Shown here: positions 44,605 through 47,778 of the stretch, one piece after another
Layout: each line of letters starts with the position of its first letter
How positions within the stretch are numbered: position 1 is the first letter of the stretch
Assembly (NCBI RefSeq): GCF_018609725.1
Contig: NZ_JAHENT010000161.1
Span: 18,860 to 82,859, forward strand
Length of the DNA: 64,000 nucleotides
DNA from: Methanohalobium sp.
GTDB taxonomy: Archaea; Halobacteriota; Methanosarcinia; Methanosarcinales; Methanosarcinaceae
Direction of reading: 5' to 3'
The notes under the pieces: generated by a model
Database searches by the model: none
What the model saw: only the letters and a program-made list of their open reading frames with translations
What the model was told of the DNA's origin: nothing
Position numbers and translations under genes: made by a program

Positions 44605-45867
44605 ATGTCAATAATAAATGTTAATCAATCTCTTAAATATCATGAAGGATCACAGCGAGTTTATGATGAAGGTACCACTCTTGAAAAAACAAAATCTCAG
44701 CTTAAAAAAATCGGAGTTACGCGTATAGCAGATATAACTCATCTTGACAGAGTGGGTATTCCTGTCTATTCTGCAATCAGACCAAGTGCTGCTAAAGGTG
44801 CTATATCTGTATATTCCGGAAAAGGTGTTACTTCCACACAAGCCAGGATTTCTGCAATGATGGAAGGATTTGAAAGGTGTCTGGCAGAGAAAAAAGAAAT
44901 GAACAATAACATACAGGAAGATATTATTGCCGATGAATTTGTTGATTCCTTTGATAATATAAAAGAAACATACAATATATTAAACCCTTCAAAACTTCTC
45001 ATATCAGAAGATGTAAGAACAGATGACATAATAGAATGGACCAGTGGATGGGACCTGATAAATGATAATGAAATCTATGTTCCATCAAATTCAGTCTACC
45101 ACCCCTACGATGCCACAAACCAGTGTGTTAAACTGTTCAGAAGCAACACAAATGGTCTTGCAGCAGGTAACGTGATAGAAGAAGCAGTGCTTCACGGATT
45201 ACTGGAAGTTACTGAAAGAGATGCCTTAAGTATTGCAGAAATGAACAGAAACCCCGGTAAAAGGTTAATGCTTGATAAAGATGACGGCATATGTTATGAA
45301 CTAATGCAAAAGTTCAATGATGCAGGTATTAATATCAGACTCTGGGTTCCCTTTCATGATACTGAAATTACAACCGTGGTTGCGTCGCTTGATGATGCTC
45401 AATTAAAAGACCCCGCAATGCTTGTGATGGGAGCTGGATCTCACCTAAATCCGGAAATTGCCACCATGAGAGCCCTTACCGAAGTCGCACAATCAAGGGT
45501 TGTACAGATTCATGGTGCAAGAGAGGATACTGAAAGGGACAAATTCGTCCGTAATATCGGATATGAACGCATGAAAAGAATGAATGGCTTCTGGTATAAA
45601 GATGAAGATGTAGAAACCGTCACATTAAAAGATTTAAACGATTTGTCCGGAAATTCGCCAGCAGAAAATATCAATACAGTAATTGACCAGCTCAAAAATT
45701 TAGTTGATAACGTGGTTGTGGTCAATCTATCAAGGGAAAGCATAAGTATTCCAGTAGTAAGAGTTATTATTCCAACCTTTGAAATGTATACACTTGACAG
45801 AGAAAGAGTTGGCAAAAGGAAAAACATCGCACTGAAAAAAAGCAAAAGAAAAGGCAAAAAAACATGA
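44605..45867 (+). CDS. ycaO: YcaO, McrA glycine thioamidation enzyme (methanogenesis marker 1)
   Basis: SGKG, MEGFER, SNTNGLAAGN..EEA..HGLLEV.ERD, RALTEVAQSR; overlaps tfuA. Confidence 0.93.
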   Translation: MSIINVNQSLKYHEGSQRVYDEGTTLEKTKSQLKKIGVTRIADITHLDRVGIPVYSAIRPSAAKGAISVYSGKGVTSTQARISAMMEGFERCLAEKKEMNNNIQEDIIADEFVDSFDNIKETYNILNPSKLLISEDVRTDDIIEWTSGWDLINDNEIYVPSNSVYHPYDATNQCVKLFRSNTNGLAAGNVIEEAVLHGLLEVTERDALSIAEMNRNPGKRLMLDKDDGICYELMQKFNDAGINIRLWVPFHDTEITTVVASLDDAQLKDPAMLVMGAGSHLNPEIATMRALTEVAQSRVVQIHGAREDTERDKFVRNIGYERMKRMNGFWYKDEDVETVTLKDLNDLSGNSPAENINTVIDQLKNLVDNVVVVNLSRESISIPVVRVIIPTFEMYTLDRERVGKRKNIALKKSKRKGKKT

Positions 45868-46556
45868 AACCACAAACGAATTTGAATATAAAAAAACCAA
45901 AAAATCCCAGAATTGCTGTTTTTGCAGGCACAAGCATAACCCATGAGGATGCTAATGAAATACTCAATGCTAACTATAAACCGCCTGTTTACAGGTGTAA
46001 CATCGATAAGGCGATGAAAGAAGGATACAACATTATAGGAATTATCGATGGAGTATTCTTTGATAAGGCGGCTGTTTCCCATAAAGAGATAATAAAAGCA
46101 CTCAAAAACAATGTCATCATTGTGGGTGGATGTAGTATGGGTGCTTTACGTGCATCAGAACTTGATGATTATGGGATGATAGGCGCAGGAAAAATATATG
46201 AACAGTACAGGGATGGTATTATAGAGGCTGACGATGAGGTGGCTGTTGCTACAAACCCTGATACCTTTGAACCTGTATCCAAACCTCTGATAAATATCAG
46301 GCAAACTCTGAAAGCGGCATATAAAGATGATATTATTGATGATAAAACCTACAACAACTTGATAGAAATTGCAAAACAGACCTATTATCCATACAGAAGC
46401 TACACTGGTATTGTTAAACAGGCTGTAAAAAATAATATCCTTACAGAGGAGGATAGCAACAATATTTTGCGGTATTGCAGAGAAAATGAGATAGACATTA
46501 AACGTAAAGATGCAGTTGCAGTTCTTAAAACCATAAAAGAAATTGTTGATAGCTAA
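45864..46556 (+). CDS. tfuA: TfuA, thioamidation partner
   Basis: IGIIDGVF, SHKEI, SMGALRASEL, ADDEVA. Confidence 0.93.
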   Translation: MKPQTNLNIKKPKNPRIAVFAGTSITHEDANEILNANYKPPVYRCNIDKAMKEGYNIIGIIDGVFFDKAAVSHKEIIKALKNNVIIVGGCSMGALRASELDDYGMIGAGKIYEQYRDGIIEADDEVAVATNPDTFEPVSKPLINIRQTLKAAYKDDIIDDKTYNNLIEIAKQTYYPYRSYTGIVKQAVKNNILTEEDSNNILRYCRENEIDIKRKDAVAVLKTIKEIVDS

Positions 46557-46578: not shown

Positions 46579-47778
46579 TTACTTAGAGTATTTTCTTCTT
46601 ACAAGGTAAAACACTAAAAGCAAACCAGCAATTGAATAAATCGCCTCGAAACCTGGCTCTTCTTCTGGTGGTTGAGCATTTATAACTTCATCAAACCTTT
46701 CTTCTGAATTATTCAGATAACTAAGAGCCATTTCCATGTTATGGACACCAAGACTTCCATCTTCCTCAACCGCAGTCATGTAATACAGCGCATTATTAAA
46801 TACAGCCTGTTGTTCCTGGTATATTTGTGTTCCATTCAATTCTTCCAGTGCTTCTTCAGCATTATCCCGTTTTGTTTCAAGGTCTTGCAGTCTGCTGGAT
46901 ATCCTTGACTGCTGGTTTTCTATAGCACCTGAAAGTTCAGCCCCGTGACATCTGGAACAATTATTTGTGGACTCTGAATCCACAACCAATGAAACATTCA
47001 TATCGAATCTATGTCCGGTCACTGCCGATTCATTTGTAGTTTCATTGAATGGTTTGGCACCCATATGACAGTCCACACACCCTATTTCTACAGGGTGCCC
47101 ACCGTTTACATAACTGGAATTGTTGTACATATCCCACTGAGTGTATCTGGCTATTGTTGTCTCCCCATCTGGTTCTGCACCACGGGAATTATGGCAATTA
47201 GAACATAGTTTTACTTCATCTTCTATATGAAATCCGGTTGAATGCGGCTCATGACAGGCTACGCATGTAAGTCTCCATTCTTCCACATCTGAAGAATTTG
47301 GCAGTTTTTCCTCATTAAAATCATGAACATCTGTACCTTCAAGGTTCACAACTGCTCCTTCAGTACTTTTACAAGCCACACAATCATCAGAATCTTGGAC
47401 AAATGGTTCGGTAACATCTGACGGTTCAGAATGGCTTGTCATGTTTTCTGTATCAAAATCATCCTTAGAATACTCGTCCCACTCATCAAATATTGGTTTA
47501 TGTGGTTCATTATGGCATTTTCCACATAACTCAGCCGAATAATTCATACCAGGGTCTATTTCAGTGGGATTATCAATATGTGCTTCATAACCTTCTTCCG
47601 GTGGGCTATGACAGACATCACAGGCTACATCTGATTCATTTAAAACGGAATGATTTGACATGTTCCATGTTTCATAAACATCTGGATGACACTGGCTACA
47701 GTCCTTTGGATTCAATGCCATGGATGTTGTTGTCATCAATATTAATATAGTCACCACAATAAAAAGATATTTTTTCAT
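46579..47778 (-). CDS. Octaheme cytochrome c (7 CxxCH + 1 CxxCK) with PGF-CTERM anchor
   Basis: CSQCH, CDVCH, CGKCH, CVACK, CVACH, CSNCH, CVDCH, CSRCH; DGSLGVHN; EEEPGF-TM-RRK tail; signal peptide. Confidence 0.9.
   Translation of the reverse strand: MKKYLFIVVTILILMTTTSMALNPKDCSQCHPDVYETWNMSNHSVLNESDVACDVCHSPPEEGYEAHIDNPTEIDPGMNYSAELCGKCHNEPHKPIFDEWDEYSKDDFDTENMTSHSEPSDVTEPFVQDSDDCVACKSTEGAVVNLEGTDVHDFNEEKLPNSSDVEEWRLTCVACHEPHSTGFHIEDEVKLCSNCHNSRGAEPDGETTIARYTQWDMYNNSSYVNGGHPVEIGCVDCHMGAKPFNETTNESAVTGHRFDMNVSLVVDSESTNNCSRCHGAELSGAIENQQSRISSRLQDLETKRDNAEEALEELNGTQIYQEQQAVFNNALYYMTAVEEDGSLGVHNMEMALSYLNNSEERFDEVINAQPPEEEPGFEAIYSIAGLLLVFYLVRRKYSK

Follow-up and report, generated by a model that had tools for sequence, protein, structure and literature searches.

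OcwA, a nine-heme terminal reductase on the cell surface of Thermincola, carries in its hemes 5-9 a module that superimposes on hemes 1-5 of NrfA, and its hemes 2 and 5 are five-coordinate, each lying beneath a His-His motif (PMC6703420). Further solved relatives are the eleven-heme OmhA of Carboxydothermus ferrireducens, the octaheme nitrite reductases (ONRs) and pentaheme NrfA. Nitrite is reduced in vitro by OcwA, ONR and NrfA alike. Here we describe a gene in a 64,000-nt stretch of Methanohalobium sp. DNA (contig NZ_JAHENT010000161.1; the window), at positions 46579-47778, whose sequence specifies an octaheme c-type cytochrome, predicted to be secreted, that belongs to the NrfA/ONR/OcwA superfamily. 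Seven of its heme motifs are CxxCH and the fourth is CxxCK. We refer to it as the Methanohalobium cytochrome.

The family has been catalogued before. Kletzin et al. (2015) grouped Metev_2082, Mmah_0727, Mbur_0030, MettiDRAFT_0692 and LI82_01985 as 'Cluster 1', proteins of 399-431 aa with 7 CxxCH and 'one additional conserved CxxCK', a fold matched to TvNiR with 100% confidence, an anchor at the C-terminus and a distribution of 'Methanosarcinales only', and their main text states that the function of the cluster 'might nevertheless be inferred' (PMC4429474). Cluster 1 is the same family as the Methanohalobium cytochrome: the ortholog in a genome of the same genus (G005, M. evestigatum) is 95% identical to it and matches Metev_2082 letter for letter along the stretch of ~125 residues that the 2015 supplement prints. 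That entry predates OcwA and does not analyse the catalytic residues, the loss of heme 2, the lyase or the distribution. A 2021 survey recorded 'NrfA' in 3 of 132 Methanosarcinales genomes. The literature searched, including a full-text search for locus tags, yielded no biochemical, genetic or expression study of the family. The family, its CxxCK motif and an ONR-like reading were already published at catalogue level in 2015, contrary to the novelty implied by the preliminary description of this locus. New here are the affiliation with OcwA and OmhA, the loss of heme 2, the non-conserved catalytic residues, the lack of a dedicated lyase and a wider distribution.

Sequence and fold relationships of the cytochrome

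A single complete open reading frame (ORF) of 399 codons and a TAA stop fills positions 46579-47778 on the minus strand, as seen in the ORF list and the translation. All 16 cysteines fall in the eight heme motifs, with CVACK fourth. Only three ORFs of the whole genome (2.09 Mb, 97% complete) contain at least two CxxCH motifs, and the cytochrome is the only one of them with CxxCK beside CxxCH, so that the eight-motif pattern is not a chance occurrence. The best solved relative by sequence was OcwA (6I5B), at 8.4e-14 when the sequence was searched singly and at 103-110 bits when family profiles were used. OmhA (6QVM) scored 72-96 bits and NrfA 60-69 bits, and the ONRs 8RV0 and TvNiR scored 41-62 and 26-36 bits. 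In the Pfam scan the cytochrome gave generic multiheme domains and no match to the NrfA family PF02335, and in the NCBIfam scan it reached 18.7 bits against the NrfA equivalog NF008339, whose cut-off is 595. Neither Pfam, NCBIfam nor sequence comparison gave a match to the hydroxylamine oxidoreductase (HAO) or hydrazine dehydrogenase families.

To compare folds we used two AlphaFold models. The first, built from a 23-sequence alignment, was poor (pLDDT 60.7, residues 70-199 below 50), and a fold search with it returned the right families at TM-scores of only ~0.35. The second, built from 91 sequences, reached a pLDDT of 93.2 and a pTM of 0.85, and shows three long helices at residues 281-313, 319-340 and 348-366. 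Foldseek searches with the second model placed OcwA first by E-value (1.8e-8, TMq 0.52) and the ONRs first by TM-score (TMq 0.56-0.58; 8rv0, 3f29, 2ot4), with NrfA at 0.41-0.47 and HAO and MccA marginal. The only HAO-type fold matches were 6h5l (E 0.02, second model) and 6t5e (E 1.5, weak first model). Within the helical region, the segment 'DGSLGVHN' aligns with 'DGSNGVHN' of OcwA, 'ENSVGFHN' of NrfA and 'DGSWGMHG' of MccA.

Most of what the preliminary description had read from the letters was borne out: the coordinates, the count and order of the motifs, the topology of three N-terminal hemes, the CxxCK heme and four more hemes followed by helices, and the helical C-terminus. The fold of the model is ONR-like as well. 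An affiliation with NrfA/ONR did not hold at the level of sequence, where OcwA/OmhA scored 103/72 bits versus 60 for NrfA and 41/26 for the ONRs.

Comparison with homologues offers a simple account of the heme count. Many homologues (432 aa) carry a ninth motif between motifs 1 and 2, aligned with OcwA heme 2, and these nine-motif proteins keep 'HHP…EW', the counterpart of the OcwA heme-2 pocket. The Methanohalobium cytochrome has no such motif and reads 'PHKPIFDEW'. Its sequence is that of an OcwA-type protein minus heme 2, with His replaced by Lys at heme 5. The loss of heme 2 therefore leaves an ONR-like count, with three hemes before the Lys heme.

The putative lysine heme and its predicted distal pocket

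CVACK133-137 aligns with CWSCK122-126 of E. coli NrfA and with the CxxCH of OcwA heme 5. In an alignment of 22 archaeal homologues (A3; 35-51% identity), C133, C136 and K137 are invariant, as the preliminary description would require of a genuine Lys motif. An exhaustive profile search returned 8853 relatives, 164 of them at E<=1e-30, and the best 150 cluster representatives were compared for the motif. CxxCK stands at the Lys-heme site in only eight others (P0003, P0024-P0028, the fragment P0002 and P0039). Among these 150, the Lys motif is thus confined to one archaeal clade and one outlier, P0039; the rest have CxxCH throughout and are as a rule nine-motif proteins whose distal pair reads 'PHHS/PQ'.

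Alignments also identified seven conserved histidines outside the motifs (H43, H67, H116, H179, H228, H256 and H346). This number equals that of the CxxCH hemes, so that none is left for the Lys heme and its distal site would be open; the Lys heme is probably distally open. Four of the seven (H116, H228, H256 and H346) align with E. coli NrfA histidines that we take to be the NrfA distal ligands. H116 aligns with the histidine of NrfA 'RGHAF' and is a putative distal heme ligand, as is H346. H116 lies in the segment SHSEP, in which S115, H116, S117 and E118 are invariant and P119 is found in at least 90% of the Lys clade.

The pocket of the predicted open heme differs from that of NrfA. In the alignment to E. 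coli NrfA, His264 is replaced by Tyr212, the calcium ligand Gln263 by Arg211, and Glu215/Tyr216 by Ser198/Arg199; Arg106 stands opposite a gap, without a counterpart, and residues 217-255, the NrfA insert, are missing. Arg211-Tyr212 is also the pair onto which His380/381 of OcwA map, with OcwA numbering set by locating both His-His motifs (the numbers of the deposited chain and of the paper differ by 29). By alignment, then, Arg and Tyr side chains are available at the distal pair of the Lys heme. Across the family this pair is HH, RH, LH or FH in nine-motif forms and RH or RY in the others, and most homologues, including all nine-motif ones, keep the catalytic His ('xHPQWE').

Set against the described systems, the Methanohalobium cytochrome resembles OcwA (Thermincola potens) and OmhA in motif order, in a 'CHN[AS]xG…' segment, in being compact without the NrfA insert, in its three-helix bundle with DGSxGxHN and in its cell-surface location, which for the archaeal protein is predicted from the signal peptide, PGF-CTERM and ArtA. 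It differs from them in heme count (eight, with heme 2 missing, against nine in OcwA and eleven in OmhA) and in the NrfA-equivalent heme, which is CxxCK under Arg-Tyr rather than CxxCH under His-His. OcwA and OmhA are bacterial, OmhA coming from the S-layer, whereas the Methanohalobium cytochrome is archaeal with a PGF-CTERM anchor signal. With the ONRs (TvNiR, 2OT4/3F29; Trichlorobacter ammonificans, 8RV0) it shares eight hemes, a CxxCK in fourth place and the C-terminal helices. However, ONRs are ~520 aa long and have catalytic Arg/Tyr/His, whereas this protein of 399 aa has Tyr212/Arg199 at the NrfA His/Tyr positions. TvNiR carries a Tyr-Cys link, whereas the Methanohalobium cytochrome has no free cysteine. 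The C-terminal five hemes and helices are homologous to those of pentaheme NrfA (E. coli, W. succinogenes, D. vulgaris), with CxxCK in the same position; NrfA lacks the three N-terminal hemes. Arg106/Tyr216/His264, the calcium site, the 40-residue insert and the partners NrfH or NrfBCD, all of which NrfA has, were not found for the Methanohalobium cytochrome, nor was a counterpart of the dedicated lyase NrfEFG of E. coli.

A tree was built from the NrfA-homologous module with the K/H column removed, using three NrfA outgroups beside 73 OcwA-like sequences. The three NrfAs are monophyletic (100/100), on a long branch from all 73 OcwA-like sequences, among them the Methanohalobium cytochrome. 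The archaeal clade comprises 22 Lys sequences and 4 nested His sequences (support 100/99); its sister group consists of 46 bacterial CxxCH sequences (92/80). This tree calls for at least three K/H changes, and neither one nor three NrfA outgroups gave a direction of change. Two of the outgroups (L099 and L100) are themselves CxxCH at the active heme and, since they are genuine NrfAs, the Lys/His switch is labile in NrfA too. L099 comes from the metagenome-assembled genome (MAG) of locus L052, which is labelled as uncultured Anaerolineales, and L100 from that of locus L084, an Anaeromyxobacter sp. MAG; they score 494 and 365 bits to PF02335. Each adjoins an NrfH-like tetraheme gene, has CxxCH (CANCH and CLHCH) at the active-site heme and keeps 'QHPEFE' and 'CHVEY'.

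A candidate role as a surface reductase, and its rivals

We favour, at a probability of roughly 45%, a role for the cytochrome as a surface-tethered reductase in which a Lys-ligated open heme acts on small nitrogen or sulfur oxyanions and is supplied by Rnf-MmcA/methanophenazine. The surface location, the electron donor, the substrates and the open distal site are all predictions. The PGF-CTERM signal would be processed by archaeosortase A, leaving the cytochrome anchored on the outside of the Methanohalobium membrane, and three N-terminal and four C-terminal bis-His hemes would wire the Lys heme to a membrane electron donor. Because mmcA-rnfCDGEAB is present, the likeliest route would run from reduced ferredoxin through Rnf to MmcA and/or methanophenazine. 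Small molecules would be reduced outside the cell, the candidate substrates being nitrite, hydroxylamine, nitric oxide and sulfite. The Lys motif aligns with two five-coordinate, substrate-binding hemes, OcwA heme 5 and NrfA heme 1, in support of an open catalytic heme. Also in favour are the invariant lysine, the equal numbers of conserved histidines and CxxCH hemes, a model that matches three proteins able to reduce nitrite in vitro, the sorting signals with ArtA and an acidic mature protein, and the presence of CcmABC and a split CcmF. Nitrite and sulfite poison methyl-coenzyme M reductase (Mcr), and cytoplasmic FsrI and FsrII are already present in M. evestigatum (PMC9295563), which makes a protective role for Mcr plausible. 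A reductase had also been proposed in the preliminary description. Topology, fold, the lysine and the anchoring signals speak for that proposal; the catalytic residues, the sequence affiliation and the NrfA models speak against it. The preliminary description itself had held that a lack of catalytic residues would count against an enzyme, and by alignment they are largely missing (Tyr212, Arg211, Ser198/Arg199, no Arg106).

Several observations weigh against a reductase role. Judged by the alignment, neither the catalytic residues nor the calcium site of NrfA are conserved, and the variability of the distal pair (HH, RH, LH, FH, RY) could mean relaxed constraint. OcwA, the closest relative, turns over nitrite at only ~1 per minute, and its presumed role is in metal reduction (PMC6703420). 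No dedicated NrfE-like CxxCK lyase was found, the other carriers of the cytochrome having one ccmF2, and heme attachment at CxxCK remains putative. No conserved neighbours, nrfH or nrfBCD lie beside the gene in the three genera examined. Orthologs are disrupted in a Methanohalobium sp. MAG (L008, G021:C41:5495-6487; TGA, TAA) and in Methanohalophilus euhalobius WG-1MB (L094, G063:C18; TGA, TAG), and the CxxCK heme segment is deleted in Methanolobus tindarius MettiDRAFT_0692 (L098, G053) and in P0029. These disrupted and deleted copies, together with a patchy distribution (28 of the 81 genomes sampled from the same taxonomic family, covering 5 of 16 genera), would also fit a decaying or dispensable gene with no current role. 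However, the frame is intact here, the 16 cysteines and all ligand histidines are kept, the M. evestigatum ortholog is 95% identical and dN/dS is ~0.2 in homologues, and we regard decay as highly improbable.

The main rival is that the protein is purely an extracellular electron-transfer cytochrome like OcwA and OmhA, which as terminal reductase or relay would pass electrons to Fe(III), humics, electrodes or partner cells. We consider this a real but lesser possibility, and think the same of its corollary that the role of the Lys heme is limited to tuning potential or binding shuttles, with nitrite activity incidental if there is any. OcwA and OmhA are the best sequence matches (103 and 72 bits) and OcwA also has the best Foldseek E-value, and OcwA is a cell-surface terminal reductase with trace nitrite activity (PMC6703420). 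The Methanohalobium cytochrome, like these, is predicted to be surface-anchored, it has no enzyme partners and its NrfA catalytic residues are gone. MmcA-based extracellular electron transfer is documented in Methanosarcina (PMC11024163). However, OcwA-type proteins have CxxCH at the Lys-heme position. A simple relay would hardly account for a Lys that is strictly invariant in the archaeal clade, since Lys ligation is otherwise a hallmark of catalytic hemes (PMC4429474), and the literature searched documents no extracellular electron transfer or metal reduction for Methanohalobium. The opposite alternative, a genuine ammonia-forming cytochrome c nitrite reductase (an NrfA/ONR ortholog) serving dissimilatory or detoxifying nitrite ammonification, has the NCBI annotation of several homologues on its side ('ammonia-forming cytochrome c nitrite reductase subunit c552', with precomputed PF02335 matches). 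So do the CxxCK at the NrfA position, the ONR fold (TM 0.58) and the catalytic His that most homologues keep. It is nevertheless improbable in our view: the cytochrome itself fails both NrfA models, His264, Tyr216, Arg106 and the calcium ligands are not conserved, the insert is missing, NrfH/NrfBCD do not stand beside the gene in the three genera, and the three bona fide NrfAs form a clade of their own, a long branch away. In particular, the protein is probably not an efficient ammonia-forming nitrite reductase, because its predicted distal pocket is non-canonical (Arg211/Tyr212 for Gln/His, no calcium site).

The preferred reading, a surface Lys-heme reductase, may be extended to a broader picture. 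Halophilic methylotrophic methanogens would display such an enzyme, matured by generic CcmF and fed by Rnf-MmcA/methanophenazine, and would use extracellular reduction of nitrogen or sulfur oxyanions to shield Mcr or as a respiratory sink of minor importance; the clade would show 'pruning' steps (nine hemes, heme-2 loss, heme-5 loss), and some members would need pyrrolysine read-through. We think this picture speculative and unlikely to hold in full. A Lys heme that proved to be real and catalytic would for the first time link cytochrome-containing methanogens biochemically to extracellular nitrogen- or sulfur-oxyanion reduction, and would show that archaeal CcmABCEF can load heme onto CxxCK with no need of a dedicated lyase, on which E. 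coli depends. The position of the clade is between the OcwA-type surface cytochromes and the NrfA/ONR enzymes, and with nine-heme, heme-2-less and heme-5-less forms side by side it makes the published 'grafting and pruning' scenario directly testable. Interest is limited by the 2015 record of the family and its CxxCK, and by the lack of canonical catalytic residues in the ortholog studied here. A usable test system is M. acetivorans, which is genetically tractable and in which a defined Ccm machinery of the kind found here is necessary and sufficient for cytochrome c maturation (PMC9084895).

Gene anatomy, genomic setting and family variants

The features of the gene are collected in Table 1. 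The N-terminus is a putative Sec signal of typical form. At the C-terminus, residues 375-396 match the PGF-CTERM family PF18204 at 34.6 bits, above the Pfam cut-off of 18.8, whereas NCBIfam TIGR04126 gave 13.5 bits, under its cut-off of 24.5. The genome encodes an archaeosortase A (TIGR04125, 276.7 bits; G000:C15:9413-10201); M. acetivorans, taken as a control, also matches this model. The signal peptide and the PGF-CTERM had both been named in the preliminary description. The mature cytochrome is strongly acidic (pI 4.27).

Table 1. Positions in the window of the cytochrome gene and its sequence features
Feature	Position	Strand	Basis or remark
Octaheme c-type cytochrome, ortholog of Metev_2082	46579..47778	-	ORF translation; one copy in genome
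Putative signal peptide, residues 1-21, MKKYLFIVVTILILMTTTSMA	47716..47778	-	Read from sequence; homologues have equivalent hydrophobic N-termini ending A-x-A
Heme motif 1 CSQCH, residues 27-31	47686..47700	-	Aligns with OcwA heme 1
Heme motif 2 CDVCH, residues 53-57	47608..47622	-	Equals heme 3 of OcwA and of nine-motif homologues
Heme motif 3 CGKCH, residues 85-89	47512..47526	-	Followed by 'EPHKPIFDEW', remnant of OcwA heme-2 'HH…EW' pocket (PMC6703420)
SHSEP, residues 115-119	47422..47436	-	Conserved; alignment
Heme motif 4 CVACK, residues 133-137	47368..47382	-	Lys137 putative proximal ligand; equals OcwA heme 5, NrfA heme 1
Heme motif 5 CVACH, residues 172-176, inside conserved EWRxTCxxCHxPH	47251..47265	-	Alignment
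Heme motif 6 CSNCH, residues 192-196	47191..47205	-	Followed by N-S-R-G where NrfA has V-E215-Y216
Arg211-Tyr212, predicted distal-pocket pair of Lys heme	47143..47148	-	Aligns with OcwA His380/381 and E. coli NrfA Gln263/His264
Heme motif 7 CVDCH, residues 234-238	47065..47079	-	Motif scan
Heme motif 8 CSRCH, residues 274-278	46945..46959	-	Motif scan
C-terminal three-helix bundle, residues 281-366, including G344-V-H346-N347	46681..46938	-	Model; pLDDT 97-98 over most
PGF-CTERM sorting signal PGFEAIYSIAGLLLVFYLVRRKYSK, residues 375-399	46582..46656	-	PF18204 E 1.6e-8; archaeosortase A substrate

For maturation, the genome contains ccmABC and a split ccmF1/ccmF2, and heme may be attached at CxxCK by a single generic CcmF. 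The assembly holds two ccmF1-ccmF2 loci, G000:C116:8366-10382 (-) and G000:C109:31194-32976 (+, to the contig end), whose ccmF copies are 85-92% identical, with ~90% DNA identity over 1.8 kb and differing flanks. A single ccmF2 is found in both other genomes of the genus and in all other carriers of the Lys-heme cytochrome. The second locus is a recent duplication or strain heterogeneity; we considered it as a CxxCK-specific lyase and rejected this, the copies being so similar and the duplicate present only in this assembly.

The cytochrome gene stands alone, with a ycaO-tfuA pair (window 44605-46556, +) converging on it from one side and a DUF169 gene diverging on the other. The pair is the one that installs thioglycine in McrA of methanogens, and its presence, like the match of the G005 ortholog to Metev_2082, marks the source organism as a methanogen. 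There is no sign of a functional link between it and the cytochrome, because the neighbours of the cytochrome differ in other genera: orthologs in Methanohalophilus and Methanolobus adjoin unrelated genes. The cytochrome is also distinct from MmcA, the Rnf-associated heptaheme protein, as the preliminary description had held. The MmcA-type cytochrome of this genome (522 aa, 6 CxxCH plus variant motifs, ortholog of Metev_1969/MA0658; G000:C21:13245-19845, -) is a different gene lying elsewhere, directly upstream of rnfC, D, G, E, A and B, and is linked to rnf, whereas the Methanohalobium cytochrome is not. This mmcA-rnfCDGEAB cluster is the Rnf-MmcA module known from M. acetivorans.

Named carriers of the family are Methanohalobium, Methanohalophilus, Methanolobus and Methanococcoides burtonii (Mbur_0030); in species genomes, the next best matches after the archaeal relatives are bacterial, at <=28% identity. 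One archaeal clade holds nine-motif, heme-2-less and heme-5-less forms, which mirror the ONR/HAO-like and MccA-like topologies discussed for the superfamily. The L098/P0029 branch, which lacks the CxxCK segment, keeps heme 2 and has an extra CKKCH motif. The disrupted copies in G021 and G063 are either pseudogenes or assembly errors; in that of M. euhalobius (L094) the frame opens only at 'VSFKSTDG' and the CxxCK motif itself is damaged.

Five other homologues carry an in-frame TAG at a homologous site: L087, L088 and L090 in genus g13, and L091 and L092 in Methanolobus (g4). With provisional starts, the TAG is codon 76 in both genera and is separated by 10 residues from the next heme-motif Cys, in the contexts '…KWDR-TAG-YANVD…' and '…LYIK-TAG-YGEM…'. 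The signal peptide and two heme motifs upstream of it are intact, and dN/dS upstream is 0.16-0.18 in g13, equal to that of the downstream part, and 0.55 in g4. Since these organisms decode UAG as pyrrolysine, the TAG-bearing homologues are candidate pyrrolysine-containing multiheme cytochromes; we found no report of a pyrrolysine site in these cytochromes in the literature searched. In Methanolobus sp. ZRKC4, the annotated protein P0020 (376 aa) begins immediately downstream of the TAG, and this annotation is probably truncated.

A second PGF-CTERM multiheme cytochrome is encoded elsewhere in the Methanohalobium genome (G000:C79:5274-6647, -). It has 457 aa, 5 CxxCH and no CxxCK, and it resembles 'Cluster 3' of the 2015 survey, of which it is a candidate member and for which that survey predicted a likeness to NrfA. 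Two cytochromes of the NrfA superfamily may be displayed by the cell.

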